NCBI GenBank assembly: GCA_017537405.1
Contig: JAFYKU010000056.1
Coordinates: 1 to 40,666 of the forward strand
DNA length: 40,666 bases
From: Clostridia bacterium
GTDB lineage: Bacteria; Bacillota; Clostridia; Christensenellales; UBA1242
Direction of reading: 5' to 3'
This document shows, piece by piece, positions 825-23,700 of this stretch. Under the pieces are notes generated by a model that had not been told where the DNA came from, searched no databases, and was given only the letters and a program-made list of their open reading frames with translations. Made by a program: the position numbers and the translations under genes. Positions within the stretch are counted from its first letter, which is position 1. The number at the start of each line of letters is the position of its first letter.

Positions 825-1766
825 TTATTTTATTTTTCCTGCTTCCTGGATTAATAATTTCATTGCTGGAACCAATTCATTTAATACTTTTGGATTAGCC
901 CTAAGGCTTCTGATAAAATCTTCTTTTAAGTACGCAGAGTTAGTGTCAATGATTAAAGTTGTTTTCTTTTTTGTTTCTTTCTTCTCAATAGTGCGCAATA
1001 AAATTTCTTCCTCTTTAAATGCATGGTCTAAAAAGCTAAATTTTTTATTTTTTTTGCCATTCAATTTTTCACTTATCACACTGTTACCATATAAGTGATT
1101 TTGGTCTAGGTCATTTCTGTTTTCAATAAAAGATGAACAACCAACTGTATTTAAAGTTATTAAATCAATAGTCGTTGCTGTACCATTTCCTTCTAGGTTA
1201 ATTGATTTCGGCAAATCGTCCCAATTTAAAACTCGCCAAGAAATTTGTTTGTTTGTTTTTTTACCTGTATAAATATCAAACTCTTTACCAATTTTCATAC
1301 AATGACATTTTTTATGTTCATCTTCATATTCATATGGTAAATAATTATCATATTTTTCAACCAACGCTAAATAAGCCGCAAGGTCAACACGCATACACAA
1401 ACGCAACATGCGTATGGTATTCTTAAAATAATCATGAACACTTTCAATATCTGTTTTTTTCAGCGCAATCTTTTCAAAACAATAAACACCATCACGCATT
1501 ACGCGAATGGGAAGTTGATCGCCATCAACACCAACACAACCTTCCGCTTTTGAGCCCGAATAAATTTTCGTCAAAGCATCATTGCGCAACCAATAAGTGT
1601 TTAATGTTGGAATTTTATTATCGTATTCTTGTTTAACAATAAAATCTTTTGATGCAAAATTAAACTTTTCCTCAAGCTCTTCGTAGCTAGGCAAATATAT
1701 CCGATTTGTAACCTCACTATCACCAGAACCAACTTTTGTCGGTACAATAAAATCTCTTAATTCCAT
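825..1766 (-). CDS. DUF6273-like permuted paralog (shortest and most degenerate member, no ATPase)
   Basis: The N-terminal half carries IYLPSYEELE, YWLRNDA and LRLCMRVDLAAYLAL. The C-terminal half carries ISWRVLNWDDLPKSINLEGNGTATTIDL, a weakened LYGNSVISEKLNG and FLDHAFKEEE. A Shine-Dalgarno sequence (aaaaggat) lies upstream of the ATG. Confidence 0.8.
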   Translation of the reverse strand: MELRDFIVPTKVGSGDSEVTNRIYLPSYEELEEKFNFASKDFIVKQEYDNKIPTLNTYWLRNDALTKIYSGSKAEGCVGVDGDQLPIRVMRDGVYCFEKIALKKTDIESVHDYFKNTIRMLRLCMRVDLAAYLALVEKYDNYLPYEYEDEHKKCHCMKIGKEFDIYTGKKTNKQISWRVLNWDDLPKSINLEGNGTATTIDLITLNTVGCSSFIENRNDLDQNHLYGNSVISEKLNGKKNKKFSFLDHAFKEEEILLRTIEKKETKKKTTLIIDTNSAYLKEDFIRSLRANPKVLNELVPAMKLLIQEAGKIK

Positions 1767-1792
1767 ATGTTATCCTTTTAATTATTTTTCTC

Positions 1793-1822
1793 ATTTTAAC
1801 ATAATCACAAATCATTTTTCAA
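1793..1822 (-). promoter_or_regulatory. putative sigma-70 promoter of the 825-1766 paralog
   Basis: On the minus strand the -35 is TTGAAA (1817-1822). An 18-nt spacer follows, then an extended -10 TGtTAAAAT (-10 at 1793-1798). The -35 sits inside the conserved motif GACTCTTGAA. Confidence 0.5.
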
Positions 1823-1919
1823 GAGTCACAGCTTACTTTTTTTATTAATTTTTTAATTCTATCGTTTAAATGCAAATTTCCTTACCACTAAATCCAGTTT
1901 TGTGTATATTGGTTAAAAA

Positions 1920-3083
1920 TTAAAGTTGGTTTTCTTGGTTGGCATTAGTGATTTGTTCCGTATTTTGATAATTCTTAAAAACACTCGGATTCGCTTCAAT
2001 CGTCGGTATGAACTTTTTCTTTCCATAGAAACGAATAGCGCGGATATGTTCAATGAGACTATCCATAGCTTCGTTTATAAAATTTTGTTGTATAAAATTA
2101 CCACCACGCGGTGCACCGTAAACCTGTAAACCATTATGCTGAATATAATTAACATTATAGCCGTTTAAATAACCGCGTAATGTACTGTTTTGCCATAAAT
2201 GGTTGTGTTTATCTTCTGTGTTCGGATAAAAAGGAATTCCCGCTATAATCGCTGATTTCGTGCGTAATTTAATTGTATCTGCTTGGTTTGTACCTTTGGG
2301 GTTTAATGCCGTGGGCAAATCGTTCCAATTTTCAATTTCCCAAACAATCGGTTCAACCTTTACCCAATAACCATTGTTACCTCTGAAACCTTTATCAACA
2401 CGCACATACTTTTCGCCATCAATTTCATATTCGTCATATTGCGATAGACGCTGACGCTTATTATTATAGCGGCCAGTATAAGTTTTGCCGGTTGATTTTA
2501 AAATCCCATCTTCCCATTTTTTTTCTAACTCATAATTTATTTCATCACCTACATACGAAGTAGGGTATGTCCCCAAATTCATCTGACCTATACCCAAAGC
2601 AAAACAATTATTATGTTTGTTTTGTTTCGTTTGGTATTTTAAAACAGCCAAACATGCGTCAATTTCTAATTGCACACACGGACGAATTGCGTGTGGCAAA
2701 ATATTTTCTTTCATATTAACTGAATCAATCCGCCCAGACTCATCAATCACACTTACGCGGCGTAAATCATTGTCAAAAACATCTTGCTCCGCAGTACGCA
2801 GCCATGTACGGCAACCAACTCTTGATTTTGTTTGATTGATAGCCAGTTTTGCGTGTAAATCATTACGGTCTTCAAAATAAACTGCTTTGTTTAAAATCGC
2901 GTAATCTGTTGGAAAAGTTAAATTGGCTTTATCTCCTGATTTGTACTGAAACAAATGCATCGCAGCTTCATATTGCGAATCCAAATAAAAATAGTCATGA
3001 GTATCAAATCGATGATCAAACTCACAACCATAATTATCAGTATTACCTAAAGTCGTAATCGAAATTAAATCACAAAAATCCAT
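1920..3083 (-). CDS. DUF6273-like permuted paralog (no ATPase)
   Basis: Motifs are FYLDSQYEAA, TWLRTAEQ and IRPCVQLEIDACLAV. They are followed by PTGKTYTG...KYVRV...YWVKVEPIVWEIENWNDLPTALNP...IPFYPN...LWQNSTLRGYLNGYNV...NFINEAM. Confidence 0.85.
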   Translation of the reverse strand: MDFCDLISITTLGNTDNYGCEFDHRFDTHDYFYLDSQYEAAMHLFQYKSGDKANLTFPTDYAILNKAVYFEDRNDLHAKLAINQTKSRVGCRTWLRTAEQDVFDNDLRRVSVIDESGRIDSVNMKENILPHAIRPCVQLEIDACLAVLKYQTKQNKHNNCFALGIGQMNLGTYPTSYVGDEINYELEKKWEDGILKSTGKTYTGRYNNKRQRLSQYDEYEIDGEKYVRVDKGFRGNNGYWVKVEPIVWEIENWNDLPTALNPKGTNQADTIKLRTKSAIIAGIPFYPNTEDKHNHLWQNSTLRGYLNGYNVNYIQHNGLQVYGAPRGGNFIQQNFINEAMDSLIEHIRAIRFYGKKKFIPTIEANPSVFKNYQNTEQITNANQENQL

Positions 3084-3089
3084 TAAGAT

Positions 3090-3118
3090 AATTTATCAAA
3101 TTTTGCAATCAATTTCAA
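3090..3118 (-). promoter_or_regulatory. putative promoter of the 1920-3083 paralog, probably leaderless
   Basis: On the minus strand the -35 is TTGAAA (3113-3118). A 17-nt spacer precedes the -10 TAAATT (3090-3095). Only 6 nt separate the -10 from the ATG at 3083, and there is no Shine-Dalgarno sequence. Confidence 0.45.
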
Positions 3119-3134
3119 GTAGCGCCTTTTTTTA

Positions 3135-5261
3135 TCAGTTTTTTTCAAGACTTGGTTTTTCCGCTCTAACTTCTTGTTGTTTTAATTGCTTTAAAAAGAT
3201 TGCTTTTTCCGGGGTGTTTGCCCATGCTTCATCGAAAACCGCTAAAATTTCATGGTTGAATTCTTTATTAATAAATTGACGCACAGTAGCCACTTCATCC
3301 ATTTTCGCATAACGCCACATCATAGCCATCGCATATTGCATATCTAAATTATGGGGAATTTCGTGACGAGCATAATTACCACTGACGATGTCTTGTACCG
3401 TGAGGGCAGGTGTCTTTGCAAATGTCATAAATGTATCCGCTAACATCGGCCCAATTTTATTACGGATTAATTCTAAATAAATTGTATTACCGTTATCATA
3501 AATCATATCACTGATTTGTTGCCAACCACGCGGATCAATCTTATATTTAGGCGGATTATCCTGGTCATACTGTGGACAAAAACATTCCATACCAACCGAA
3601 GCCACAAAGGCCGCTACCAACGGGTGAATATTGAGACGACCTTGTTGCGCTTTATGGGGATCTTCATTAGGCTCGCTTGCCCATTCTAACCACTCCGGAA
3701 TGTTAGGCTTAATGTAAACATGACCGAAGAAACGACGCTCTAACGGTTCTGCCATTTGATAAGCGGCTAAACTTTCTTCTAAACTGTTACCCGCCGCCAC
3801 GACCGATACATTGGCTGGCAACTTACCAATATTTGGACCAATTGAGTGTTCCAAAATAATATGAAATACTGCAGATTGTTCTTGCTCGCGCACATTCGTA
3901 ATCTCATCAATAAACAACACATGTTGCTTGTTTGGCTCTTGCGCGCACTTTTCACACAAATCGTTATACCATGCTGGTGCCTGCCATTGAGCAGAGTTCA
4001 CATTCTTTTCATCAAGAAAAATATTCTTACCAATAATTTCTTCCGGCAACATTCCATTGCGTAAAGTAATAGAAACAAAGTCGGGATCAATTTTTTTCAC
4101 ACGATGTGATTTACCAATCCCACTGGGACCATGTAACATCACCGTGTGTCCGTTTTGGATATATTTTTGTAATTGCTCATTAATCGACAAAGGTTTTTCT
4201 TGGATTTTAATTCCCCAACCCAACCGAGCTTTTTGATAAATATCAATTGTTTTTAACAACTCAATTTCGCGTGTAAATGCTTGTTGGATAAAATTATAAT
4301 GCGTAAAATCGCCACCACACGGAGCAGTGTAATCAGTATTTCCATTTTCTTTAATGTTATTAACATTAATACCGTTCAAAAATCCACGCAGCGAACTATT
4401 TTGCCACAAGTTATTATTATCATCAGTAAGATTTGGATAAAAAGGAATTCCCGCCATTAATACATATTTTGACGCTAAATCTAAACATACTGCGGTACCG
4501 CTACCTTGCGGATTAATCGAAGTTGGTAAATCTTTCCAATTTTCAATTTCCCAAACCAAAGGCACAACTTCTACCCAATAACCATCATTGCGTGGTCCTT
4601 TATTCACCCGCACATAGCGTTTACCATTAACTTCGTATTCAAAATAATAATTTGGTTTGTCATTTTTTTTATCAAAACAACCAGTGTAAGTTTTCCCCGT
4701 CGGAACAATCACGCGATGTTCCAAAGCTTCTTCTAGTTGTTTGTTAAATTTATCGCCAACATATTTTTGCGGGTACTCACCAAACAGCAAAACACCGTTT
4801 TGACCTTCAACATGCTGAACACTTAAAGTCTGTTGGTCATCTTTTTGATTCTTGTCCAACCAACTTCGCACTTTCAAAAATTCTAACAAATCCATGCGCG
4901 TGCGCGGAGATATACCTTGCGATAAATTTCTTTCACTTGGTGTGACAAAAAATTTTTTACCTGCTTCATTGCGAATACAAACACGACCAATCCCTAAACC
5001 ATCTTGTCCACCTGTTCGCAACCAAACACGGCAAGACGGAAACTTACCCAAAACTTCAGGATTAAAATTTTCATCTTTCGTATTTAATGCTTTATTTAAA
5101 ATTGCAAAATCTGTGGCTTGCGTTAATTGTGGGTCATCATAATCTCCCTCAATAAAAAACATATCACGCGTATTAAAATCTTGGCTTCCCCAATATCCAC
5201 TTAAATCCGTATTTAATAAAACCTTGGGGTTTAACAAATCATTAATTAACATACCATCCAA
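3135..5261 (-). CDS. DUF6273-like permuted head fused to a C-terminal MoxR/AAA_5-like AAA+ ATPase
   Basis: The head (about 4190-5261) carries VWLRTGGQ, GISPRTRMDLLEF, VWEIENWKDLPTSINPQGSGTA, LWQNSSLRGFLNG and NFIQQAF. In the ATPase, Walker A GPSGIGKS is at 4107-4130 and Walker B VLFIDEI at 3900-3920. Sensor-1 is VVAAGN and the Arg-finger region is EPLERRF. A lid-like C-terminus follows. Confidence 0.9.
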   Translation of the reverse strand: MDGMLINDLLNPKVLLNTDLSGYWGSQDFNTRDMFFIEGDYDDPQLTQATDFAILNKALNTKDENFNPEVLGKFPSCRVWLRTGGQDGLGIGRVCIRNEAGKKFFVTPSERNLSQGISPRTRMDLLEFLKVRSWLDKNQKDDQQTLSVQHVEGQNGVLLFGEYPQKYVGDKFNKQLEEALEHRVIVPTGKTYTGCFDKKNDKPNYYFEYEVNGKRYVRVNKGPRNDGYWVEVVPLVWEIENWKDLPTSINPQGSGTAVCLDLASKYVLMAGIPFYPNLTDDNNNLWQNSSLRGFLNGINVNNIKENGNTDYTAPCGGDFTHYNFIQQAFTREIELLKTIDIYQKARLGWGIKIQEKPLSINEQLQKYIQNGHTVMLHGPSGIGKSHRVKKIDPDFVSITLRNGMLPEEIIGKNIFLDEKNVNSAQWQAPAWYNDLCEKCAQEPNKQHVLFIDEITNVREQEQSAVFHIILEHSIGPNIGKLPANVSVVAAGNSLEESLAAYQMAEPLERRFFGHVYIKPNIPEWLEWASEPNEDPHKAQQGRLNIHPLVAAFVASVGMECFCPQYDQDNPPKYKIDPRGWQQISDMIYDNGNTIYLELIRNKIGPMLADTFMTFAKTPALTVQDIVSGNYARHEIPHNLDMQYAMAMMWRYAKMDEVATVRQFINKEFNHEILAVFDEAWANTPEKAIFLKQLKQQEVRAEKPSLEKN

Positions 5262-5316
5262 TCCTTTCTTTATAGATTAACATTTCAATCACTCAAATTC
5301 AAGAGTCAAACCAAGT

Positions 5317-7308
5317 TTATTTTTCTAATTCAGATTTTATGTTTTTTACTACCAAAGCTCGCGCTCCATCATAAACGGATAAAATTTCCTCACCAAATTC
5401 CCGGCTAATAAATTCACGAATCACTGGAACTTGTTCTGGTTTCGCATAACGCCACGCCATGGCTAAAATATATTGCTGGTCAAACTTGCGTGGTATTTCA
5501 ATTTGTGAATAATTTTTGTTCACAATATCTTCTGCCGTCAGTGGTGGGTTCTTCGCAAACGCCACCAAAGCATTTGTCAATAACGGTCCGATTTTATTCG
5601 CGATGATTTCTTTGTAAATCATGCCACCGTTATCATAAATTAAATCACTCACTTGTTCCCAAGCGCGTGGGTCAATTTTATAATTATATTTCTTGGTATC
5701 ATCTGGGTCTGGCTGCGGACAGAAGACTGCATCTCTCATGGAAGCCACGAAAGCCGTCACTAATGGATGCACATTTAAATGTCCTTTATCTTCGTTCATA
5801 CGATTGGCCCAATCTAACCAATCCATGATGTTGGGTTCAAAATAAATGTGACCATAAAATCTTCGCTCTAACGGTTCCGCTATTTGATAAGCTGCCGTAC
5901 TTTTTTCCATACTATTACCCGCCGCCACAATGGAAACATTGTCTGGTAATTTGCCGCAGTTTGGCGTCACCGAACGATCTAATACAATATGAAACACCGC
6001 AGATTGTTCTTGTTCACGCACATTAGTTAATTCATCAATAAATAAAATATGGCGCTTGTGCGGTTCTTTGGCACATTTTTCACATAAATCTGTATACCAC
6101 GCTGGTGCTTGCCATTGTGCCGATTTTACATCTTTTTCATTAATAAAAATATTTTTGCCAATAATCTCTTCCGGCAACATTCCATTGCGCAAAGTTAATG
6201 AAACATAGTTTGGGTCAATTTCTTGCACGCGCCGCGATTTACCAATTCCACTGGGACCATGTAACATCACAGGATGTCCATGTTCAATATATTTGCGTAA
6301 CTGCTCGGTTTCATTTAAAGATTGTTGACTTAAATTCACACCCCAACCTTTGCGATTAATTTTATTTTGACATTCAATGGTTTGCAATAATTCTTTTTCT
6401 TTTGTAAAGGCTTCATCGATAAAATTGTGTTCAGTAAAATTACCAGCGTTCAACATCGACAAATCATAACCATTTAAATAACCACGCAGGGTACTATTTT
6501 GCCATAGCGTCTTATTATTTTTAAATTTAAACTTTGCCGGATCAAAATTACTCGTACGATAAAATGGAATACCAAAATTAATAACATTGCGCGTGATTAG
6601 CTTAATTGTTTGCGCTTTGCCATTTCCTTGTGCATTAATTTCGCGCGGCAGCTCGTGCCAATTCGTGACAATCCAAGCCAACGGTTTATTAGCTAAATAA
6701 TAGATTCGATTATTTGTGGCAACCTTGACATATTTTTGGCCATCTAATTCACGCTCAGAACACAAAACAGGTTGCCCAATAATTTTATCAAAAGCTAACA
6801 GATATTTACGATTTGTCTTCACTAAACGGTCTTTTTCATTTTCAAAATTCCTATCGCCGTTCACCACAACTTGCGGATATTCACCAAAATCCAATAATAT
6901 GTAATCATGTTCTTTATCTTCAGGGTCTCGATAAAAAGCGTATCTTTCATCATCATGACGCTTTTTCATAGCTTCTTGTAAATCTAAATAAGCATTAATG
7001 TCTAAATTCATGCACGGACGCAAACCAATATTTATATCATCATAAAAAGCTGAACGCAGTCCATAATTTACATCATAATAATTAATTTTATCCGTTTCAA
7101 ACGCCGCACGGTCCCGCGTCCAAAAAGAACCATTTTTCTCAAAACCTTGCGGATTATTTTTAAACCCAATTTCAGCTAAACCAACCGTTTTAATATCAAA
7201 TAAAATACTCTGCGCAATTTCATTTGTGGACGGTAAAAAAATGCGATCACTGATTTTTGCATCTTCTAAATTTGTCGAGACAATAATATCTTCTAAACGC
7301 ATACTCAT
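5317..7308 (-). CDS. DUF6273-like permuted head fused to a C-terminal MoxR/AAA_5-like AAA+ ATPase (second copy)
   Basis: The head carries RIFLPSTNEIAQ, FWTRDRA, GLRPCMNLDINAYLDL, LAWIVTNWHELPREINAQGNGKA, LWQNSTLRGYLNGYDL and NFIDEAF. In the ATPase, Walker A GPSGIGKS is at 6235-6258. It also has ILFIDELT, IVAAGN and EPLERRF. This half is very similar to the ATPase half of 3135-5261. Confidence 0.9.
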   Translation of the reverse strand: MSMRLEDIIVSTNLEDAKISDRIFLPSTNEIAQSILFDIKTVGLAEIGFKNNPQGFEKNGSFWTRDRAAFETDKINYYDVNYGLRSAFYDDINIGLRPCMNLDINAYLDLQEAMKKRHDDERYAFYRDPEDKEHDYILLDFGEYPQVVVNGDRNFENEKDRLVKTNRKYLLAFDKIIGQPVLCSERELDGQKYVKVATNNRIYYLANKPLAWIVTNWHELPREINAQGNGKAQTIKLITRNVINFGIPFYRTSNFDPAKFKFKNNKTLWQNSTLRGYLNGYDLSMLNAGNFTEHNFIDEAFTKEKELLQTIECQNKINRKGWGVNLSQQSLNETEQLRKYIEHGHPVMLHGPSGIGKSRRVQEIDPNYVSLTLRNGMLPEEIIGKNIFINEKDVKSAQWQAPAWYTDLCEKCAKEPHKRHILFIDELTNVREQEQSAVFHIVLDRSVTPNCGKLPDNVSIVAAGNSMEKSTAAYQIAEPLERRFYGHIYFEPNIMDWLDWANRMNEDKGHLNVHPLVTAFVASMRDAVFCPQPDPDDTKKYNYKIDPRAWEQVSDLIYDNGGMIYKEIIANKIGPLLTNALVAFAKNPPLTAEDIVNKNYSQIEIPRKFDQQYILAMAWRYAKPEQVPVIREFISREFGEEILSVYDGARALVVKNIKSELEK

Positions 7309-7319
7309 TTTTCATAAAC

Positions 7320-7349
7320 AGCATACCACTGATAACCCAACATTTTCAA
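7320..7349 (-). promoter_or_regulatory. putative promoter of the 5317-7308 gene
   Basis: On the minus strand the -35 is TTGAAA (7344-7349) inside the motif AACTCTTGAAAA. An 18-nt spacer precedes an extended -10 TGgTATGCT (-10 at 7320-7325). Confidence 0.4.
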
Positions 7350-7360
7350 GAGTTATCAAA

Positions 7361-7771
7361 TTATTCCGCTTGATAAAGCAAACAAAAATCTTTAATTACT
7401 GGGGATACATTATCAATCTGTTTCGCTGTTACAATGATTTGCGTTTCTTGCGGGAAAGCGAAACCATTTAAACCTTTATATTTTAAGATGCCACAAAACT
7501 TTGCTTGTTCACTGAATGGCAAAGCATCAATCCCATCGATACAAAGTAAAATTTTCTTTTTGGCGTGTGCTTTCATCATCAAAGTTAATAACCACTTCGG
7601 ATGTTGATAACCTTTATCTTGCGGAATAATACCCAATTCCGCTGACGGAGTAGTGGCAGGAAGCACAACAGCATCCGGAAAATTTTTCGCTGACACGCCG
7701 CCAATCACAAATGGCTGACTAGTTAGTTTAGTTAAAATATCACGGATAACTTTTTGCGATGCTTGTGTCAT
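7361..7771 (-). CDS. small degenerate AAA+ core remnant with no functional Walker A/B, translationally coupled to the upstream paralog
   Basis: It aligns by eye to the ATPase cores of the two fusions. VIGGVSAKN stands in place of LHGPSGIGKS. ILLCIDGIDALPFSEQAKF stands in place of VLFIDEITNVREQEQSAVF. IIVTAK stands in place of VVAAGN. It ends before the Arg-finger and lid. An ATGA start/stop overlap with the 7768-8952 gene lies at 7768-7771. Confidence 0.65.
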   Translation of the reverse strand: MTQASQKVIRDILTKLTSQPFVIGGVSAKNFPDAVVLPATTPSAELGIIPQDKGYQHPKWLLTLMMKAHAKKKILLCIDGIDALPFSEQAKFCGILKYKGLNGFAFPQETQIIVTAKQIDNVSPVIKDFCLLYQAE

Positions 7772-8952
7772 AATGATTTTCCTATTTCGGTTGCTTTTGA
7801 ATTCATTTTTAATGCGTTTTGTTTGATTGGGCGTTGTCGCGATTTTTTATTATCTTTTAATAAATTAATTTCTTGAATTAAACCCTTGACGCGTCCCATT
7901 GCTTCATTTAAAAAATTATGGTCTTTAAAATTTCCACCACACAAGGCAATGTGTTCAAGGTTTCTAATATTACGATTTTCAATACTGCGCAAATCATAAC
8001 CATTTAAATAACCACGCAATGAACTGTTTACCCATAAATTTGCATCAGGGTGGTTTTGATTAATATTAAAAGGAATACCACCGATAATTGCTTTTTGCGC
8101 GCGAAGTTTAATTACGGCAGCGGTGCCGTTACCTTCCGGATTAATCTCTTTGGGTAAATCAGACCAATTTTCAATATCCCAAAGAATTGGCTCTACATCA
8201 AACCAATAACCAACACTAGGGTTATCACAACCATATCGCACCATTTTAATAGGCCAGGGAAGATTGTATTCATATTCCACACCTTCACTAAATTTTCCCG
8301 TACTAGCATCATAACTACCAATAAAAGTTTTACCCGTTGGAATTAAATCACCAGCTCTTACTTGTTCTTCTTTTTCCTCATCACAATAATTGTAATTAAT
8401 TTCTTGATAAAAAGTTGTATTACGGCAGGAATGTGATTGGGGAAATTCTCCCAATTTCATTAATGGACCATTCCATTTTGAATCTTTACAAATCTGAAAT
8501 TCTGAACCCCAATAACCAATACGATCTAAACCTTTTCTGATTTGCAAAAAGGTTGGTATATCTAAAGATAAACAAGGACGAACTCCAATATTTTCTCCAT
8601 TTTCGTGTGAAGTTGAATATTTCATTTCACCTTCCGCATCAACAAGCGCAACTTGATTTTCATGATTAGAACGAAGATAATAATTACACGCTGATTTCAT
8701 TCCAGAAACTTTATTTTCCATTAATTTCCAATTCAAATCACCATGTCCTTTGTAAGGTATGGCATGATTAATCAAAGCATACGAGGTTGGGAAACATCGA
8801 TTTAAACTACTTTCTTCTGACGCATGGGCTTCAAACTCAGGGATTGATTCCACAAAAACTCGGTCTTGCGTATCCCAAGCAGAGTTACCAATACAACCAT
8901 ATGGTGTTGTGTTACTTAAATTTGTTTCAATAATTAAATTAGATAATTCCAT
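7768..8952 (-). CDS. DUF6273-like permuted paralog (no ATPase)
   Basis: Motifs are YYLRSNH, GVRPCLSLDIPTFLQI, PTGKTFIG, ILWDIENWSDLPKEINPEGNGTA, LWVNSSLRGYLNGYDL and NFLNEAM. I chose the start at the internal MELSNLIIETNL (8952). It matches the N-termini of the sibling genes and has the Shine-Dalgarno sequence AAGGAatttgatATG. The ORF track extends to 9009. Confidence 0.8.
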   Translation of the reverse strand: MELSNLIIETNLSNTTPYGCIGNSAWDTQDRVFVESIPEFEAHASEESSLNRCFPTSYALINHAIPYKGHGDLNWKLMENKVSGMKSACNYYLRSNHENQVALVDAEGEMKYSTSHENGENIGVRPCLSLDIPTFLQIRKGLDRIGYWGSEFQICKDSKWNGPLMKLGEFPQSHSCRNTTFYQEINYNYCDEEKEEQVRAGDLIPTGKTFIGSYDASTGKFSEGVEYEYNLPWPIKMVRYGCDNPSVGYWFDVEPILWDIENWSDLPKEINPEGNGTAAVIKLRAQKAIIGGIPFNINQNHPDANLWVNSSLRGYLNGYDLRSIENRNIRNLEHIALCGGNFKDHNFLNEAMGRVKGLIQEINLLKDNKKSRQRPIKQNALKMNSKATEIGKSL

Positions 8953-9037
8953 ATCAAATTCCTTAATATAGCATAAGCTCTTAATTTTCAATTTGCAATA
9001 CCCATTCAAAAAAAACTTTTATGAAATATTTTTCTGT

Positions 9038-10168
9038 TTAAATAATTTGATTATGTGTTTGGCTTGTTTGGTTAATTTTTAAACCTTGTCCATGATTAAT
9101 AACAATTCTTAATTTTTTTGGTTGTTGTTTATTTTTGATATCAATATCTCGAATCAATTCTTTTTCTTCTGCAAAAGCTTCGTTAATAAAATTTTGTTGA
9201 CTGAATTGATAATTATTACCCACCGCATAACGCGTGTTGATGTTCTTTTTTAACTGCTTCAAATCATATCCATTGAGGTACGCACGAATCGGACTGTTTT
9301 GCCATAAATGAGCATTGATTTCTTCGTGTGGGAAAAAGGGTATTCCTGCATTAACCACATAACTACAAACCAATTCAATATATTGTGCTGTTCCGTTTCC
9401 GTTTGGATTAATCGATTGCGGTAAATCATCCCAATTTAAAATATCCCATTCTAATGGTTCAACAGTAAACCAATAACTTTCTTTTTGTGTATCAAGATTG
9501 ACACGAACATAACGCGTATTGGTCAAATTTGAAACATATTCAGCATGGCGAATCGGTTTATTATTTTCACCAACAAAACAACCCAGATAAAACTTTCCTG
9601 TGGGAACTAAAAAACCATCATGCCTTAAATTTTCCAATTGCCAAGTATCACTTTCATCTAAAAGAGTTTTTGGATAATCACCCATTAAAAATGATTTAAT
9701 CAAAAAATCATTTTGAATCTTAAACTTTTCTGTATCTTGTTTTGTTTTAAAAAATTTATCTTGCACGGCTAAGAAAGCATCAATATCCATTTTTATTTGT
9801 GGGCAAATACCTTGTCCTAAATCGCGTTGCCATGGTTTTTGTAATTTGAACTCACTTTTCTCTAAATAACTATTGGGCTTACTACAATCTTCTACATTAA
9901 AAGTAAAAACTTTTTTTTCATCTTTTAAATCAACACCAGAACAAGTCCACATGTTCACAATTGAATTAGTATAAACCGTTTTTGTTTGTTGGTTATTTGC
10001 TATCCGAGCATTAATTCTTGCATAACCACTTGTATACCTTTTTTGATAAAAATCAACCTGTTTTAAAATATCTTCACGAGATGGCAGATAAAACATATCG
10101 GTCGTAACAAAGTGTTTATTTGTTGTGTTGTTTAATTTTACAGGAACGATTAATTCAGATATTTGCAT
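9038..10168 (-). CDS. DUF6273-like permuted paralog (no ATPase)
   Basis: Motifs are MFYLPSREDIL, GICPQIKMDIDAFLAV, PTGKFYLG...RYVRV...YWFTVEPLEWDILNWDDLPQSINPNGNGTA, LWQNSPIRAYLNGYDL and NFINEAF. The Shine-Dalgarno sequence is aagaggt. Confidence 0.85.
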   Translation of the reverse strand: MQISELIVPVKLNNTTNKHFVTTDMFYLPSREDILKQVDFYQKRYTSGYARINARIANNQQTKTVYTNSIVNMWTCSGVDLKDEKKVFTFNVEDCSKPNSYLEKSEFKLQKPWQRDLGQGICPQIKMDIDAFLAVQDKFFKTKQDTEKFKIQNDFLIKSFLMGDYPKTLLDESDTWQLENLRHDGFLVPTGKFYLGCFVGENNKPIRHAEYVSNLTNTRYVRVNLDTQKESYWFTVEPLEWDILNWDDLPQSINPNGNGTAQYIELVCSYVVNAGIPFFPHEEINAHLWQNSPIRAYLNGYDLKQLKKNINTRYAVGNNYQFSQQNFINEAFAEEKELIRDIDIKNKQQPKKLRIVINHGQGLKINQTSQTHNQII

Positions 10169-10178
10169 ATTACCTCTT

Positions 10179-10208
10179 ATTATATTATATTCAACCCACT
10201 AAATTCAA
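10179..10208 (-). promoter_or_regulatory. putative promoter of the 9038-10168 paralog
   Basis: On the minus strand the -35 is TTGAAT (10203-10208) inside the motif GGTCTTGAAT. An 18-nt spacer precedes the -10 TATAAT (10179-10184). The Shine-Dalgarno sequence AAGAGG follows. Confidence 0.5.
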
Positions 10209-10219
10209 GACCCAAATTT

Positions 10220-11527
10220 TTAACGCGTATAACCAAGGTCATCATTTTGATGTGATTGGCTTTCCTTAAACATTTGACGGATTTCATAAGGATCTACTTT
10301 TAAAACTTTTCCGCAACATGGAGTGAACTCAATATCACGCCAAACCAACCAAAATAAATTTTTAATTCTTCGGTTTTCTTCTTTATCGGTAACAACATCT
10401 AAGCCATCGGTAAAAATAATTTTATAAACATTTTGCATACGGTCTTTTGAAAAATGAGCAAGTGCTTCATCGAAACTGGTTCCGCCACGCCCTACAATTT
10501 GAAATTGGTCAATATCTGACACTTTTTTAATACTTTGAAATCCATAAAATTGGGTATCAAAACAACCAACCTTTAGCTCGGCATTACGCACTAGATTTTT
10601 AATCTCCCTTAAAAAACCACGCAACAAATTATCATCAACAGAGCCACTGGTATCCAACATGACTTCCACCAAAGCTTTGTCTTCACGATATTTATATTCA
10701 ACGCGTGGTTGCCAATCATTGTTGCGGTCAGCTCTGCGGTAAGACCAATAGGCTTGTTCTAATTCCTTAAATTTTCGTCTCAAAACTTTTTGCCAATTTT
10801 CAATCGGCTGCGCTTCACCAACAACTCCTAAATCAGTTTTCATAGCACCTTGATTTTCACCATGCGCCATACCTTTTTCAGCTTTCAAATCTTCCATGAT
10901 TTTTCGCGCCAATTTTTGTTTCAATTTTTCATTAACCTGTGTGAACTGTTTTTCGCGAGCATTGGATGATTCGTCTTTGGTTGTTTGTGTTTGATTATCG
11001 CTTTGTTCTTGTTCCAATCGTTTTAAGGCTGCTTCCCACAATTCATGGTTACCAACAGACATTTCTCCTGTGTTTTGATGCTTATCATGACCAGTGTCAT
11101 TTTGCGACTCTTCTTTGAATTGGTCTTTATGCATTAATATATATTCGTACATTTCTTCCGCTGATTTTCCGCGTGCATTAGGAAGATTAATTCCACCTTG
11201 GGGTAGTGGTAACCCTGCATCGATAATCATTTGATTAATCACAGCATCAGTGGCAATGTTCCAATAATATAAAATACGATTTTTACTACGGACAATATGA
11301 TCAAAAGCCACATGCATCACTTCATGCGCAAATAAAGCTATTTTTTCTTCAAAACTTAACTTCTCTAAAAATGAAGGTGATACCCGTACATTATTACCGT
11401 TCGTATCTGCCGTTTCTGTTTTATCTGTAACTTCAAAAACTAATTTTTGCATTACAGGCCCTAATAGCGGAAATTTACTTAATACGCCATTTTTCACTTC
11501 TTTTAAAGCTTGTACTTGCATCATCAT
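10220..11527 (-). CDS. VWA (MIDAS) domain protein with an N-terminal HExxH putative metallopeptidase domain (DUF2201_N + DUF2201/VWA-like architecture)
   Basis: HEVMH is at 11312-11326 within FAHEVMHVAFDH. The MIDAS-like DTSGS is at 10640-10654 within VMLDTSGSVDD. A Gln/Glu/Lys-rich linker lies between the two. It is the first gene of the paralog array and on the same strand. Confidence 0.8.
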   Translation of the reverse strand: MMMQVQALKEVKNGVLSKFPLLGPVMQKLVFEVTDKTETADTNGNNVRVSPSFLEKLSFEEKIALFAHEVMHVAFDHIVRSKNRILYYWNIATDAVINQMIIDAGLPLPQGGINLPNARGKSAEEMYEYILMHKDQFKEESQNDTGHDKHQNTGEMSVGNHELWEAALKRLEQEQSDNQTQTTKDESSNAREKQFTQVNEKLKQKLARKIMEDLKAEKGMAHGENQGAMKTDLGVVGEAQPIENWQKVLRRKFKELEQAYWSYRRADRNNDWQPRVEYKYREDKALVEVMLDTSGSVDDNLLRGFLREIKNLVRNAELKVGCFDTQFYGFQSIKKVSDIDQFQIVGRGGTSFDEALAHFSKDRMQNVYKIIFTDGLDVVTDKEENRRIKNLFWLVWRDIEFTPCCGKVLKVDPYEIRQMFKESQSHQNDDLGYTR

Positions 11528-14823: not shown

Positions 14824-15858
14824 TTATTTACCGTATTTTTGGCTCCAAGCTTCGTTTGCAATCTTACGCATATATTGAATGGTTTCAATTGGGAATTCAC
14901 CCATAGCTGTTTCTTCCGAAGTCATAACTGCATCAGTACCATCATATACTGCATTTGCAACATCTGAAGTTTCGGCACGGCTTGGGCGTGGTTTTTGCAT
15001 CATATTCAACATCATTTCGGTTGCAACAACTACAAATTTATTTGCGGCGTTACATTTTTTAATAATGATTTTTTGAACAGTTGGCAATTTTTCTAATGGA
15101 TATTCAACACCCAAGTCACCACGAGCAACCATAATACCGTCTGCTTCAGCAATAATTTCATCTAAATTTTCAACGGCTTGTACACTTTCAATTTTTGCGA
15201 TAATTGGAGTATTACCTGTGATTTTACGCATTTCACGGATATCTTCAGCTTTATTTACAAATGAAGCTGCAATTAAATCAACTTTTTGTTCAACACCAAA
15301 TTTCAAATCTTCAACATCTTCTGGACGCAAGAATTGTAAATGAACATCAACACCAGGAACAGCCATACTTTTTTTGTCAGCCATTTTACCACTGTTTTCA
15401 ATTTTTACAACGATTTCTTTATTTTCAGCTTTAACTTCTTGAACTTTAGAAATAATTAAACCATTACAAATTAAAATGGTATCACCAGTTTTTACATATT
15501 TATATAAATCTGGGTGAGAAATAGCAACACCTTGTTGGTTACCAATACGATCATCTTGATCGCAATACAAAGAGAAAATATCTCCTGGGTTTACCATAAT
15601 ACTTCCGTTTTCAAATGTGCGTAAACGGATATCTGGTCCTTTGGTATCCAACATAATTTTAATGTCTTTACCAAATTTTTCATTAACTTCGCGAATGCGA
15701 GCGAATTTGCGGCCATGTTCTTCGTGGCTGCCATGGCTGAAGTTACAACGGGCAATGTTCATGCCTGCGTCAGCCAAACCTTTGATTTTATCTACTTCTT
15801 CAGTCGCAGGACCGATGGTGCAGATAATTTTGATTTCCTTTTTATTTGTGCTTTCCAT
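14824..15858 (-). CDS. pyk: pyruvate kinase, short form lacking the C-terminal domain
   Basis: Motifs are IICTIGPA, ARCNFSHG, MLDTKGPDIRL, KIES, MVARGDLGVE, ATEMMLNMMQKPRPSRAETSDVANAVYDGTDAVM and SEETAMGEFP. The protein ends about 24 aa after the last motif, at 344 aa. Confidence 0.9.
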   Translation of the reverse strand: MESTNKKEIKIICTIGPATEEVDKIKGLADAGMNIARCNFSHGSHEEHGRKFARIREVNEKFGKDIKIMLDTKGPDIRLRTFENGSIMVNPGDIFSLYCDQDDRIGNQQGVAISHPDLYKYVKTGDTILICNGLIISKVQEVKAENKEIVVKIENSGKMADKKSMAVPGVDVHLQFLRPEDVEDLKFGVEQKVDLIAASFVNKAEDIREMRKITGNTPIIAKIESVQAVENLDEIIAEADGIMVARGDLGVEYPLEKLPTVQKIIIKKCNAANKFVVVATEMMLNMMQKPRPSRAETSDVANAVYDGTDAVMTSEETAMGEFPIETIQYMRKIANEAWSQKYGK

Positions 15859-21159: not shown

Positions 21160-21591
21160 CTATTGCTTTAATTCAACAGAGAGTAAAAATTTTTCCCCAC
21201 TACAATGAAATTCAATCAAATTATTGGTAAAGTAAGCGTTTAATTGTGTCGCAACCGCATCATCGATATAAGTCGCACATTCGTCCAGATTGTGTAATTC
21301 TAAACGGTCTAACTCGGTACGATTTTCATCGCCGTAGCCATAATCATGTTGCGTAATGTAACGAATAGTCGCAATGTTTTGAATTTTGGCTTCCTTTTGT
21401 TCGGGTGGTAAAGTATCCCGTGCCACTTTGGGGGCAGTAATCACACCCACAGAGCCATCTGTTAAATGTACATATAAAGTGTTATTTTCGCGTTCCACCT
21501 TGTTTGTAATTTCAGTACGCATAATCGCTTGTAAAAAATCGATGACAAAAGCTGGATTGGTACTGTTGTGTACTTCTTGAGTTTTGTTCAT
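21160..21591 (-). CDS. hypothetical protein inserted between dnaA and dnaN
   Basis: This is a 143-aa ORF with no recognisable motif. A TATAAT lies 7 nt upstream of its ATG. Confidence 0.5.
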   Translation of the reverse strand: MNKTQEVHNSTNPAFVIDFLQAIMRTEITNKVERENNTLYVHLTDGSVGVITAPKVARDTLPPEQKEAKIQNIATIRYITQHDYGYGDENRTELDRLELHNLDECATYIDDAVATQLNAYFTNNLIEFHCSGEKFLLSVELKQ

Positions 21592-21717: not shown

Positions 21718-23127
21718 TTACTTTTCAAGTTGTTTTAAAATATCTTCAACCGCGGTTTTTAATTTATTGCCTTCCACACTCATTAAATTAGCAATCTTGT
21801 CACGCGAATAAATTACTGAAGCGTGCGTGCGACCGCCTAAGATTTCACCGATTTCGGTTAATGGTACATCTTTCAAGCGTTCGGTTAATAAGTAAGCTGT
21901 GACCATACGCGCATCGGCTAGTTTTTCGGTTCGGCGTTTACCGGTAATTTCGTCCGGCGTGACACTAAAATAAGCGGCGACTGTGGCAATCACGCGGGCA
22001 GCAGTATCACCAATGCGCGCATTTTCTTCGTCACCCGAATTATCTGCCAAAGCTGCGGCACAATCTTCGATAGTTGGAATCGTGTGTCCGTTAAGTTCAG
22101 CGTAAACAATAATCTTAATTAAGTGACCTTCCATATCGCGAATGTTTTCGTTGACTTTGTTGGAATATTCCGCAATGTAAGATGCAACTTCGTTAGACAA
22201 GAATTTATCTTCCAAAGCGGCCTTCTTTTGCAAAATCGCGGTACGCATTTCAATGTCTGGGTTGCGAATATCTTGGAAAATTCCACTCTTCAAACGCGAC
22301 TGCAAGCGTTCGGATAAGGTTGCAATTTCGTTGGGGTGGCGGTCACTGGTTAAAACAATTTGTCTTTGGTGTTCAAATAAGTCATTAAAAGTGTGGAAAA
22401 ATTCTTCTTGGGTGGCTTGCTTGCTGGCTAACTCTTGCACATCATCGATTAATAAGACATCCACATTGCGATACTTTTCACGGAAAGCTCCGAAATCACC
22501 TTTTTGTTTAATCACATTCACATAGTCATCGGTAAATTTTTCAATCGTCGTTAAAACTAAACGGGTAGCTGGACTATCTTCCAAAATTTGGTTGGCAATC
22601 GCGTTTAATAAGTGGGTTTTACCTAAACCCGAACGCCCATAAATAAAGAGCGGATTAATTTTTTTACCCGGGTGTTTGGCGACAAATTCGGCCATGGCTG
22701 CCACTTCTTGATTAGATTTTCCCACGATGAAATTGGTGAAAGTTTGTTGTGGGTTAATGTTGTTATTGTAAATAATTGGTTCAGCAACTGGAACTTCCGG
22801 TGCGGGGTTGTTGCGTGCGTCACGGCGTTCTTTTTCCACCGCATCAATAATTTCCACTTTTTCTACTAATGGCGCCACAGCTTTAATTGCGTAATCAATG
22901 TGGGGGAAGTGTCTTTCATTGCGCGCATAATTCGCGTCGCGGGTTGAAAGTGCGCTTAAAATAAAAGTTCCGTCTTCAAAAGCTTCGGGCATTAACGGTT
23001 GAATGTATAAATCAAAAGAGATACTGCTAACATTGTTTTCAATAATTGGTAAAGCTTGTTTCCAAATTTCATTCACATCCATGATTGGTATAGTAACACA
23101 TTTTTCATAATTTTGTAAATAAATCAT
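21718..23127 (-). CDS. dnaA: chromosomal replication initiator DnaA
   Basis: The AAA+ core carries [11 protein letters not shown] and LLIDDVQ. The C-terminal DNA-binding domain carries [22 protein letters not shown]. An alternative start is the ATG at 23082 (MDVNEIWKQ). Confidence 0.9.
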
Positions 23128-23181
23128 TGCTTCATATATATATGTAAATGGAGAAGTCCGACAATTTTCGCAAAGTTAAGG

Positions 23182-23210
23182 TTGACGGCGGTGCTATGCT
23201 GTGATAGAAT
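23182..23210 (+). promoter_or_regulatory. sigma-70 promoter of rpmH-rnpA-yidC-jag
   Basis: The -35 is TTGACG (23182-23187). A 17-nt spacer precedes an extended -10 TGaTAGAAT (-10 at 23205-23210). The ATG lies 7 nt downstream. Confidence 0.65.
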
Positions 23211-23217
23211 AATCCTT

Positions 23218-23355
23218 ATGAAAAGAACTTGGCAACCTAGTAAAGTTAAGCGTCGTCGTACAGTAGGTTTTCGTAAGCGCATGAAAACCGCAGCTGGACG
23301 CAATGTTCTTCGCCGTCGTCGTGCACGCGGTCGTAAGCGTTTAACTACAAAATAA
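23218..23355 (+). CDS. rpmH: 50S ribosomal protein L34
   Basis: I translated it manually as [45 protein letters not shown] (45 aa). It is absent from the ORF track because it is short. Confidence 0.95.
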
Positions 23356-23357
23356 TT

Positions 23358-23690
23358 ATGTTACCTTTAAGGTATCGCTTAAAGAAGCGCAAAACATTTA
23401 ACTATTTACACCAACACGGTAAACGCGTCAGCGGACAATATGTGCTGGTGTATTTTTGTGCTGCTACGAACTTAAAAGTGGGTTTTAGTGCCAGTAAAAA
23501 AGTGGGTAATAGTGTGATTCGTCACCGTTCAGTGCGTTTACTGCGTGAAGCCATGCGTCCGTTGTTAAAACGCGTCAATCTGCGTACTAATATGATTGTA
23601 GTTGCTAAACCCGAATTGCCACAACAGCATCTCTTATATATTACATTGGATTTGGAAAACACTTTGAAGAAAGCTGGACTTGTGGTATAA
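23358..23690 (+). CDS. rnpA: ribonuclease P protein component
   Basis: It lies directly after rpmH. It is basic and 110 aa long, with VGFSASKKVGNSVIRHRSVRLLRE. Confidence 0.85.
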   Translation: MLPLRYRLKKRKTFNYLHQHGKRVSGQYVLVYFCAATNLKVGFSASKKVGNSVIRHRSVRLLREAMRPLLKRVNLRTNMIVVAKPELPQQHLLYITLDLENTLKKAGLVV

Positions 23691-23700
23691 TCAATCTATT

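Follow-up and report, generated by a model that had tools for sequence, protein, structure and literature searches.

The paralog array and its neighbours

The window, that is the whole stretch of 40,666 nucleotides that was analysed, carries six tandem paralogs on the minus strand (G1 to G6, Table 1), next to a gene for a DUF2201 protein whose translation contains the motifs HEVMH and DTSGS (MIDAS-like). The start of G2 was set at the ATG rather than at the TTG (9009) that the ORF finder had given farther upstream, and its orthologs measure 394 and 393 aa. We call N-half and C-half the two parts of the unit as they lie in the window proteins; the six paralogs are 24% identical in the N-half and 39% in the C-half. 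In G1 the tail beyond the C-half is disordered. G6 lacks most of the beta extension that opens the C-half and matches the N-half and C-half HMMs at 1e-35 and 4e-30, respectively. Each intergenic spacer of the array holds a ribosome binding site (RBS) and a promoter-like site, with a (C)TCTTGAA core (repeat families D10 and D14) common to the sites before G1, G3, G4, G5 and G6; these sites are consensus matches only, such sites showing no enrichment over the whole region (58 vs 46 +/- 6.5).

Table 1. Coordinates of the array, its domains and its flanking features
Feature	Position	Strand	Description and basis
DUF2201 gene	10220-11527	minus	DUF2201_N zincin-like metallopeptidase + DUF2201 VWA-like domain; Pfam E 3e-27, 2e-11
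Promoter-like site before G1	10179-10208	minus	TTGAAT-18-TATAAT, within 51-bp spacer; consensus match
G1	10168-9038	minus	376 aa; stand-alone permuted DUF6273 unit; ORF, Pfam scan, AF2
G1 N-half	aa 1-128 = 9785-10168	minus	Lectin-core half
G1 linker helix	aa 129-149		Between halves
G1 C-half	aa 150-345 = 9134-9721	minus	Beta extension + W-x-I-x-NW...LWQNS.IR.YLNG...NFINEAF
Promoter-like site before G2	about 8956-8991		TTGAAA...TATTAA...AAGGAA; by-eye reading
G2	8952-7768	minus	394 aa from ATG at 8952; stand-alone permuted unit; Pfam, orthologs, start context
136-aa ORF	7771-7361	minus	Between G2 and G3; 4-nt overlap with G2 stop
Promoter-like site before G3	7320-7349		Consensus match
G3	7308-5317	minus	663 aa; permuted unit + MoxR-type AAA+ ATPase in one protein
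G3 permuted unit	aa 1-~325 = 6334-7308	minus	
G3 ATPase	aa ~336-651 = 5356-6303	minus	MoxR-type AAA+; AAA_5, AAA_3, Sigma54_activat near threshold (Pfam)
Promoter-like site before G4	5274-5304		Consensus match
G4	5261-3135	minus	708 aa; permuted unit + MoxR-type AAA+ ATPase
G4 permuted unit	aa 1-345 = 4227-5261	minus	
G4 linker	aa 342-347		Low model confidence
G4 ATPase	aa 363-708 = 3138-4175	minus	MoxR-type AAA+; Walker A GPSGIGKS, Walker B LFIDE
Promoter-like site before G5	3090-3118		Consensus match
G5	3083-1920	minus	387 aa; stand-alone permuted unit
Promoter-like site before G6	1793-1822		Consensus match
G6	1766-825	minus	313 aa; stand-alone permuted unit; most divergent paralog

Orthologous arrays at two other loci (L001 and L002) keep all the gene boundaries, those of seven ORFs, at 94% and 69% protein identity. 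Against L002, dN/dS lies between 0.09 and 0.30 per gene and, taken per half, does not exceed about 0.4 in any computable case (the N-half of G5 is synonymous-saturated). Both halves are thus under purifying selection, the N-half evolving faster than the C-half, with a higher dN/dS in most genes. G6 is 81% identical to its L001 ortholog and 23% to that of L002, while the 136-aa ORF is 100% identical to its L001 counterpart and shows a dN/dS of 0.07 against L002.

Order of the halves in the DUF6273 family

DUF6273 (Pfam PF19789) is a C-type-lectin-like domain that phage receptor-binding proteins ("tentaclins", Mtd-like targets of diversity-generating retroelements, DGRs) share with Firmicutes surface proteins, e.g. 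as the N-terminal domain of the ThomasA IgA protease (PMC10743442; bioRxiv 10.1101/2024.10.15.618418; PMC12402451). In a Pfam scan (cutoff 23.5 bits), the N-termini of G2 (HMM 46-171, E 6.5e-9, 36.3 bits) and G3 (aa 15-103, HMM 77-171, E 4.2e-8, 33.7 bits) exceed the cutoff, and that of G5 matches at 20 bits (aa 7-140, HMM 58-171, E 6.6e-4). In G1 and G3 the C-terminal part aligns with HMM 24-70, weakly (14-19 bits, below threshold). The late positions of the model therefore come first and the match is non-colinear, as the initial annotation had predicted when it read each gene as opening with the second half of DUF6273 and closing, or meeting its ATPase junction, with the first. Its assignment of all six paralogs to DUF6273 holds above the cutoff for G2 and G3; the Pfam scan finds no DUF6273 match on either G4 or G6 alone, and these two are placed in the family because of paralogy.

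For the first half, the weak Pfam match is made solid by three canonical-order proteins that join both halves (P0146, P0015 and P0020). These match DUF6273 colinearly (HMM 28-171, E 4e-18 to 2e-43), and a profile of the window C-half matches them at E 3e-22 to 1e-25 (search space of 1.8 billion proteins), directly upstream of a segment resembling the N-half. The alignment locates the joint: canonical P0146 stops just past LRPAVSVSL, whereas the window proteins run on from ...RPC..LDI through a helix into FGEYPQ. The beta-rich segment FGEYPQ...TGKTY...KYVRV...YW.VEP, initially taken for an insert between the halves, also lies upstream of W-x-I-x-NW in canonical-order relatives and therefore belongs to the first half as its N-terminal beta extension.

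The same architecture extends well beyond the window. An exhaustive profile search gave 741 matches; among the 151 best database representatives, about 130 carry the swapped N->C order in a single chain, 93 of them matching colinearly in one piece (87 of the 93 beginning within 40 aa of the N-terminus) and about 35 more as consecutive pieces. The unit starts mostly inside the first 10 residues of the protein, the proteins have no signal peptide, and the module is followed by an ATPase, by a BspA-type LRR domain or by nothing. Tandem forms include CNCN (P0015 and P0020), NCNC (P0032) and CNC (P0004 and P0010), and the permuted profile runs colinearly across the junction between the N-half of unit 1 and the C-half of unit 2 in tandem canonical proteins. 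The Pfam model sees only half of the permuted module, and most family members have no annotation. The swapped order is genuine and represents a widespread variant of a known domain that has escaped annotation.

The sizes of some relatives (P0010, 4282 aa; P0134, 4609 aa) and the NCNC and CNC forms of P0032 and P0004 recall another option of the initial annotation, namely that the array is what remains of an ancestral giant multi-repeat ORF after stop codons split it. We give it hardly any credence because: (i), the seven ORF boundaries are unchanged in both orthologous arrays, (ii) both halves are under purifying selection (dN/dS 0.1-0.4), (iii) every spacer has its own promoter-like site and RBS, (iv) the first residues of the window genes are the N-terminus shared with about 90 independent family members and, (v) the ATPase domains are intact in two of the genes.

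Probable packing of the halves within one chain

The AF2 model of G1 is compact and confident (pLDDT 85.1, pTM 0.86), with a linker helix of lower pLDDT (about 70). G4 serves as an internal control: its pLDDT is alike (83.5), but its pTM falls to 0.51 and model confidence is low at the hinge that separates the NC module from the ATPase, and if the G1 halves were independent bodies a G4-like pTM would be expected. Mean-field DCA, on a small sample of 114 sequences and with a shuffle control that does not preserve phylogeny, ranked 11 inter-half couplings in the top 50 and 24 in the top 100, against 1-3 and 2-7 in four pairing-shuffled controls. Three inter-half pairs that join core motifs exceed every control maximum (I52-F234, G120-V271 and D128-Y165), Y165 belonging to the FG.YP strand beside the ...RP...L strand. 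The pTM and the coevolution, rather than model coordinates, suggest that the G1 halves pack intramolecularly as one unit.

Could the halves instead be two independently folding units, one beta/helical and one a minimal lectin core, strung like beads in the opposite order? The joining helix of about 20 residues, the faster evolution of the N-half (in paralog identity as in dN/dS) and a Foldseek search of the whole G1 model against PDB and BFVD, which returned no significant match, C-type-lectin folds included, all fit such a swap of domains. We nevertheless consider it unlikely: besides the pTM contrast with G4 and the coupled core strands, canonical DUF6273 forms one globular, lectin-like domain in published AlphaFold models (PMC10743442), and the halves never separate in full-length family members. 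The lectin-likeness of the window proteins accordingly rests on Pfam homology and on the published canonical models (PMC10743442; bioRxiv 10.1101/2024.10.15.618418).

It had also been proposed that complementary halves abut across gene boundaries, about 50 bp apart, and that the products may complement head-to-tail in trans. In such a reading, the first half of one product would pair with the second half of a neighbour, or of another copy, into chains or rings. Halves do face each other from G1 to G2 (85 bp) and from G5 to G6 (153 bp); elsewhere the first half runs into an ATPase domain of 330-350 aa (G3 and G4) or the 136-aa ORF parts G2 from G3. Several loci carry arrays of NC paralogs (the window itself, L001, L002 and, with six genes, L011), AAA+ fusions would gather six copies, and swapping is compatible with a monomer prediction. 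However, solitary NC genes exist (L003, L008 and L012), the N-half of G1 has no upstream partner and the C-half of G6 no downstream one, and the compact G1 monomer and the within-chain coevolution point the same way. Pairing between neighbours is unlikely to be obligatory, and even as a domain swap we regard it as quite improbable.

Circular permutation, favoured by the HMM order, the conserved single-chain architecture, the pTM and the coevolution, is thus retained. Each of the six genes probably codes for a circularly permuted DUF6273 domain that is complete and self-contained and apparently serves as the sensor of the ATPase/VWA-peptidase module. The canonical chain runs from the beta extension through W-x-(V/I)-x, W..S.(I/L)R.(W/Y)LN, F..AF, D.(V/I)FLPS..E and W(W)LRS to G(V/I)RP...L. 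The permuted one begins right behind F..AF, passes through the lectin core to ...RP...L, crosses the helix, which links the former C- and N-termini, and continues from the beta extension to end at F..AF. A canonical unit was probably duplicated in tandem and its outer half-units then lost, a route suggested by the tandem canonical proteins, which hold the permuted unit internally. Natural circular permutants arise by duplication and truncation in DNA methyltransferases, saposin/swaposin and some lectins; here too, canonical, tandem and permuted forms occur side by side and a linker joins the old termini. We know of no report of circular permutation in DUF6273 or in DGR-type C-type-lectin folds, and a literature search that combined circular permutation with DGR and C-type lectin fold yielded no relevant paper.

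The ATPase/VWA-peptidase context and the diversity of the putative sensor

The NC-ATPase gene adjoins a DUF2201 VWA-peptidase gene in all seven informative loci. An ORF of about 130 aa is present in five of the seven NC-ATPase loci (it is missing from L017 and L020), and in L006, L013, L015 and L018 homologs of the 136-aa ORF separate the ATPase gene from the VWA gene (E 1e-8 to 1e-40). This ORF, which has no Pfam, PADLOC or NCBIfam match, is conserved as a partner gene of the module. In L013, NC and ATPase are separate genes. None of the defence-system models matched.

MoxR AAA+ hexamers such as NorQ and CbbQ work via a VWA partner, NorD or CbbO. The ATPase part of G4 finds its closest solved folds there (Foldseek: CbbQ2 6L1Q, 9.5e-9; NorQ 9QH4/9QHG, about 1e-7; TM 0.57-0.64 on target), its profile matches PDB 2R44 (E 4e-4), and a VWA/MIDAS protein gene likewise adjoins. 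In contrast, NorQ-NorD and CbbQ-CbbO remodel a metabolic enzyme, lack a lectin-like N-terminal module and have a VWA partner without a peptidase domain.

Another parallel in composition is offered by the MoxR-vWA "ternary" conflict systems, in which DGRs diversify FGS/CLec sensors (Kaur et al. 2020, PMC7159879; Dore et al. 2024, PMC10907252); CLec-AAA ATPase DGR targets in CPR bacteria are also cited there (PMC7159879/PMC10907252). Both associate a MoxR-class AAA+ ATPase, a vWA partner, a peptidase and a hypervariable lectin-fold sensor. In the ternary systems, however, the sensor is C-terminal on the vWA protein, and other domains are stressed to be always N-terminal to the lectin domain (PMC7159879, PMC10907252), whereas here the sensor is N-terminal on the ATPase, the vWA partner belongs to the DUF2201 type and brings a zincin domain of its own, and no VMAP component was seen. 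The hosts also differ: multicellular cyanobacteria/proteobacteria there, a small-genome gut Clostridia lineage here.

From its gene context, the permuted module apparently functions as the sensor of the ATPase/protease module. It shares with canonical DUF6273 an identical motif set and significant homology in both halves; unlike the canonical C-terminal or extracellular modules it is N-terminal and has no signal peptide, and it may be a cytoplasmic ligand sensor. Its new C-terminus would be free for fusion to, or joint work with, the MoxR-type ATPase, which would act with the conserved ~130-aa protein and the DUF2201 VWA-metallopeptidase.

As in canonical DUF6273, where the loop WWLRS...GVRP is the DGR variable region (PMC10743442; bioRxiv 10.1101/2024.10.15.618418; PMC12402451), a DGR diversifies the sensor in a relative, at one locus pair (L006/L007) among about eight contexts: a 109-nt TR/VR pair has all 18 of its mismatches at TR adenines, and the VR covers codons 84-120 of the N-half (W-C-R-S...S-C-P-x-L), i.e. 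the lectin loop. No such retroelement is present in the window; diversity would come instead, unlike in the ternary systems, from tandemly duplicated, separately promoted paralogs, six hard-wired copies whose lectin half diverges most.

Order and folding of the DUF6273 halves

By ORF calling, eight genes run in the same direction on the minus strand of region 825-11527 (table), and six of them, G1 to G6, are paralogs whose pairwise identity averages 24% over the N-terminal part and 39% over the C-terminal one. The initial annotation had read each paralog as a circular permutant of DUF6273 and predicted that late positions of the domain model would come first. This is what we find, weakly on the C-terminal side: the N-termini of G2, G3 and G5 align to positions 46-171, 77-171 and 58-171 of the Pfam model (PF19789, positions 1 to 172, gathering cutoff 23.5 bits), and the C-terminal parts of G1 and G3 to positions 24-70 (14-19 bits). 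Whole-protein scores are above the cutoff for G2 (36.3 bits) and G3 (33.7 bits), where only the second half of the model contributes, and below it for G5 (20.0 bits) and G1 (19.0 bits); G4 and G6 had no DUF6273 match in the Pfam scan, and no window protein matched positions 1 to 172 colinearly. In contrast, three relatives of canonical order (P0146, P0015 and P0020) match colinearly over positions 28-171 (E 4e-18 to 2e-43). A profile of the window C-half (the first part of the model with a beta extension) matches the same three proteins at E 3e-22 to 1e-25 in a search space of 1.8 billion proteins, directly upstream of a segment resembling the window N-half (the second part of the model, or lectin core). 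The late coordinates at the N-terminus and early ones at the C-terminus, set against these colinear relatives, therefore indicate that the window proteins are homologous but permuted.

Features of the array and of the retroelement in L006, a relative's locus
Feature	Position	Strand	Remarks
DUF2201_N metallopeptidase and DUF2201 VWA-like protein	11527-10220	-	Pfam E 3e-27, 2e-11
G1	10168-9038	-	376 aa
G2	8952-7768	-	394 aa
136-aa ORF	7771-7361	-	overlaps the G2 stop (ATGA)
G3	7308-5317	-	663 aa
G4	5261-3135	-	708 aa
G5	3083-1920	-	387 aa
G6	1766-825	-	313 aa
TR	L006:4921-5029		diversity-generating retroelement; likewise in L007
RT (RVT_1)	L006:5243-6271		directly upstream of the target gene; likewise in L007
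VR	L006:6589-6697		within gene 6340-8478 (NC-ATPase homolog P0152), near its 5' end; likewise in L007

The alignments locate the breakpoint. Canonical P0146 stops a few residues past LRPAVSVSL; the window proteins continue from ...RPC..LDI through a helix to FGEYPQ, and their N-terminus (M.LS.LI.PT.L.NT) pairs with the segment that connects F..AF to D.IFLPS in the canonical protein. The two halves are each homologous to one of the DUF6273 segments and stand in swapped order, as defines a permutant. The C-half match in the canonical relatives spans the whole FGEYP...TGKTY...KYVRV...YW.VEPI.W.I.NW stretch, so what had been taken for a beta-rich insert between the halves is instead a beta extension with which the first half begins in this DUF6273 subfamily, and not an insertion produced by the permutation. 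With the swapped Pfam coordinates and the bridging canonical proteins, circular permutation is the best-supported reading, and each gene probably encodes one circularly permuted DUF6273 unit.

The two halves could also be independent domains that merely exchanged places, an unlikely alternative against which two results argue, though indirectly. (i), the AlphaFold2 model of G1, built on a 72-sequence family alignment, has a pLDDT of 85.1 and a pTM of 0.86, with values above 90 for residues 1-30 and for the final helices. Full-length G4, whose two modules serve as an internal control, reaches a pLDDT of 83.5 and a pTM of 0.51, its permuted unit being set off from the ATPase by a hinge of low confidence at 342-347; a G1 made of independent halves would be expected to give a similar pTM. 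(ii), mean-field DCA on 114 non-redundant family sequences, a small sample whose control does not preserve phylogeny, places 11 inter-half couplings in the top 50 and 24 in the top 100, against 1-3 and 2-7 in four controls with shuffled N-half/C-half pairing; three inter-half pairs exceed every control maximum. The analysis recovers hairpins of the model inside the C-half (e.g. 190/191-210, 196-208, 218-235 and 221-236). The coupled residues lie in core motifs. The DYA..N helix is paired with the YW.VEP strand; the FG.YP strand is the partner of the W.RS strand and, together with W.I, of the ...RP...L(D) strand. Pair 128-165 links the old C-terminal strand with its old N-terminal counterpart, as a permutable fold demands.

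Published models of the canonical domain show one globular, C-type-lectin-like unit (PMC10743442; bioRxiv 10.1101/2024.10.15.618418). Foldseek of the G1 model against the PDB and BFVD returned nothing at E < 0.05, a search that depends on sequence order and that a permutant may escape; lectin-likeness therefore rests on DUF6273 homology and on the published canonical models. PDB sequence and profile searches with the NC profile (NC denoting the swapped order in one chain) and with the VWA protein gave nothing useful. The ThomasA crystal structure 9QDH covers residues 323-878 and leaves its N-terminal DUF6273 domain outside, so that there is no solved canonical reference.

The permuted family, its origin and its diversification

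An exhaustive profile search gave 741 matches, and the architecture was read on the best 151. Among these, 93 align as one colinear piece running from the N-half into the C-half, of which 87 begin no more than 40 residues from the protein start (most within 10), and about 35 further proteins show the same colinearity over consecutive pieces. The swapped order within one chain extends across the family. A word-indexed homolog search had returned only 2-6 relatives; scans of further collections added four genome loci and two metagenome loci, and that of a viral collection none. Current annotation shows at least about 130 clusters (50% identity) as half a DUF6273 or as nothing, and a permutation-aware model would annotate them.

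According to another reading, neighbouring products would complement each other head to tail in trans. The halves had been described as abutting across gene boundaries, which holds only for G1 to G2 and G5 to G6; the other halves are kept apart by an ATPase domain or by the 136-aa gene. Solitary NC genes are found among housekeeping genes (L003, L008 and L012), and the unit is therefore complete without any neighbour, which makes trans-complementation very improbable. The NC unit is an N-terminal module with varying partners, a MoxR-type ATPase in 35 of the 151 representatives, BspA-type leucine-rich repeats in others and none in many. In a second fusion class (P0068, P0115 and P0037, 575-942 aa), the N-terminal permuted unit precedes BspA-type repeats (Pfam LRR_5), and these proteins too lack an obvious signal peptide. 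In the locus L011:2485-10747, from another Clostridia MAG, six NC paralogs of 397-459 aa stand in tandem, and none in that stretch is fused to an ATPase; arrays of paralogs of the module are therefore recurrent.

The permutation probably arose by duplication followed by trimming of the ends, for which tandem canonical proteins would be the expected intermediate. The canonical form is a C-half followed by an N-half (P0146); tandem canonical proteins read CNCN (P0015, P0020) or CNC (the 4282-aa P0010), and a tandem permuted one reads NCNC (P0032). In tandem proteins the permuted profile is colinear across the junction between the lectin half of unit 1 and the first half of unit 2. An 'E..ELI' motif at both termini was considered as a duplication relic and discarded: over 72 family members, the N-terminal 16-mer is no closer to the C-terminal tail than shuffled sequence (mean 14.5 vs 14.7, p = 0.9). 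As a separate observation, the disordered K/Q/N-rich tail of the stand-alone paralogs (G1, 9038-9133) aligns with the G3/G4 linker into the ATPase (...LRIVINHGQGLKINQ and ...WGVNLSQQSLNETE), a hint that ATPase fusions gave rise to the free paralogs or the free paralogs to the fusions.

In the relative L006/L007, a 109-nt template repeat (TR) upstream of the reverse transcriptase gene (RT) matches codons 84-120 of the target gene, and 18 of the 18 mismatches fall at TR adenines: the element is a bona fide diversity-generating retroelement (DGR). Its variable region (VR) extends from W-C-R-S to S-C-P-x-L; this is the loop that canonically varies in DGR lectin folds, and it lies here within the N-terminal permuted lectin half. 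Since the lectin fold is permuted, the rule that the VR lies at its end still holds. Among the ORFs and repeats of the window there is no RT and no A-biased TR/VR-like repeat, and comparison with the orthologs revealed no hypervariable hotspot. The six window paralogs differ most in the lectin half, the one that the DGR targets in L006 and L007. The two situations allow sensor diversity driven by a DGR to be compared, in nature, with diversity driven by paralogs, and the natural breakpoint with its linker is a ready-made design for DGR scaffolds with free C-termini.

ATPase fusion, conserved partners and a possible function

G3 and G4 continue into an AAA+ domain whose motifs, read from the translations, are GPSGIGKS, LFIDE, AAGN and ERRF, with Walker A and B kept. 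Pfam AAA_5 falls just under its cutoff (19-20 vs 22 bits); the ATPase family profile matches the MoxR-family structure 2R44 at E 4e-4 and CbbQ at 0.01, and the closest Foldseek neighbours of the G4 model are CbbQ2 (6L1Q, E 9.5e-9) and NorQ in NorQ-NorD complexes (about 1e-7, target TM 0.6). The C-terminal part of G3 and G4 is a MoxR-class AAA+ ATPase. The ATPase-linked NC form adjoins a DUF2201_N/DUF2201 gene in all seven informative loci, and the window DUF2201 protein retains an HExxH motif (HEVMH) and a DxSxS MIDAS-like motif. A homolog of the 136-aa ORF stands between the two genes in five of the seven loci (all except L017 and L020). This ORF is 100% identical in the relative whose proteins are 94% identical and has a dN/dS of 0.07 against the distant one; it has no Pfam match and no family or fold assignment, and the suspicion by eye that it is a degenerate AAA+ fragment was not borne out (BLASTP against the G4 ATPase, E = 3.2). 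In L013:3-3766 the NC unit, a MoxR-type ATPase, an ORF of about 140 aa and a DUF2201 protein are four separate consecutive genes, the fission counterpart of the G3/G4 fusion.

No signal-peptide-like start is seen in the translations of the window NC proteins. We propose, with somewhat less than even confidence, that the NC unit is a cytoplasmic ligand sensor: ligand binding by the permuted lectin-like unit would be coupled to a MoxR-type hexamer, which would act on the VWA-metallopeptidase as NorQ does on NorD, and the free paralogs would serve as adaptors or as alternative sensors. It is tempting to speculate further that the permutation is adaptive and that the module is an intracellular recognition or conflict system of gut Clostridia, although we hold these ideas, taken together, to be rather unlikely. 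Permutation would bring the hypervariable ligand-binding loop to the front of the protein and free the other end of the domain, permitting fusion of the sensor upstream of a MoxR ATPase that gates the VWA-metallopeptidase. Diversity could then come in two modes, somatic hypermutation by a DGR as in L006, or, in the window, a germline set of six sensor paralogs, each with its own promoter, of which two are fused to the motor and the other four share it as free adaptors.

The proposed module is analogous to described MoxR-vWA systems in which a DGR diversifies the lectin sensor (Kaur et al., PMC7159879; Dore et al., PMC10907252). In contrast to these, the sensor here is N-terminal, on the ATPase, the VWA partner, a DUF2201-type protein, carries a zincin of its own, and no VMAP component was noticed. 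The VMAP/iSTAND ternary systems (Kaur et al. 2020) have a third component and effector domains on the vWA protein, whereas the third conserved gene here is an unrelated-looking ORF of about 130 aa without Pfam match; PADLOC and NCBIfam matched no system model or family name. We treat the window module as an analogue of the VMAP/iSTAND systems rather than a member. The DUF6273 domain and the MoxR-vWA-lectin theme are already known; to our knowledge, within the literature searched, the permuted form and this wiring were previously undescribed. The theme, so far found mainly in multicellular cyanobacteria and proteobacteria, would extend to small-genome gut Clostridia with a different wiring.

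Gene boundaries and chromosomal setting

It had also been suggested that the array is a fragmented ancestral giant ORF. We give this almost no credence. Every gene boundary is kept in the orthologous arrays of two related MAGs (94% and 69% protein identity), and dN/dS against the distant ortholog is low, 0.09-0.30 per gene and at most about 0.4 for both halves where computable (the N-half of G5 is synonymous-saturated). The short spacers each carry an RBS and a TTGAA(A/T)-17/18-TAnnnT promoter-like site with a common TCTTGAA core; a fixed-spacing promoter pattern matched only one spacer, and the promoter claim rests on a looser consensus scan and on the common core. The regular spacing of about 50 bp is therefore what tandem duplication of gene-plus-promoter units would yield, and not the scar of a broken ORF. 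The (C)TCTTGAA(A/T) core is common to spacers 10169-10219, 7309-7360, 5262-5316, 3084-3134 and 1767-1919, where it serves at the same time as a -35-like box, 17-18 nt before the TAnnnT box, and it may form a regulatory element that the paralogs share.

The window, from a lineage of uncultured gut Clostridia, has a chromosomal setting beside dnaA, dnaN, gyrB and gyrA. Cumulative GC skew has its minimum at about 22000-24000, at the divergent dnaA / yidC-jag-gyrB junction, consistent with a replication origin there, which would place the array about 12-22 kb from oriC. Between dnaA and dnaN lies an unusual tenant of that spacer, a 143-aa ORF (21160-21591, minus strand) with a weak, below-cutoff match to the two-component-system ADP-ribose glycohydrolase domain PF22545 (E 7.6e-4). 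The pyruvate kinase gene (14824-15858, minus strand) encodes the barrel domain only (344 aa), without the C-terminal domain, and its orthologs are likewise barrel-only (340/344 aa).
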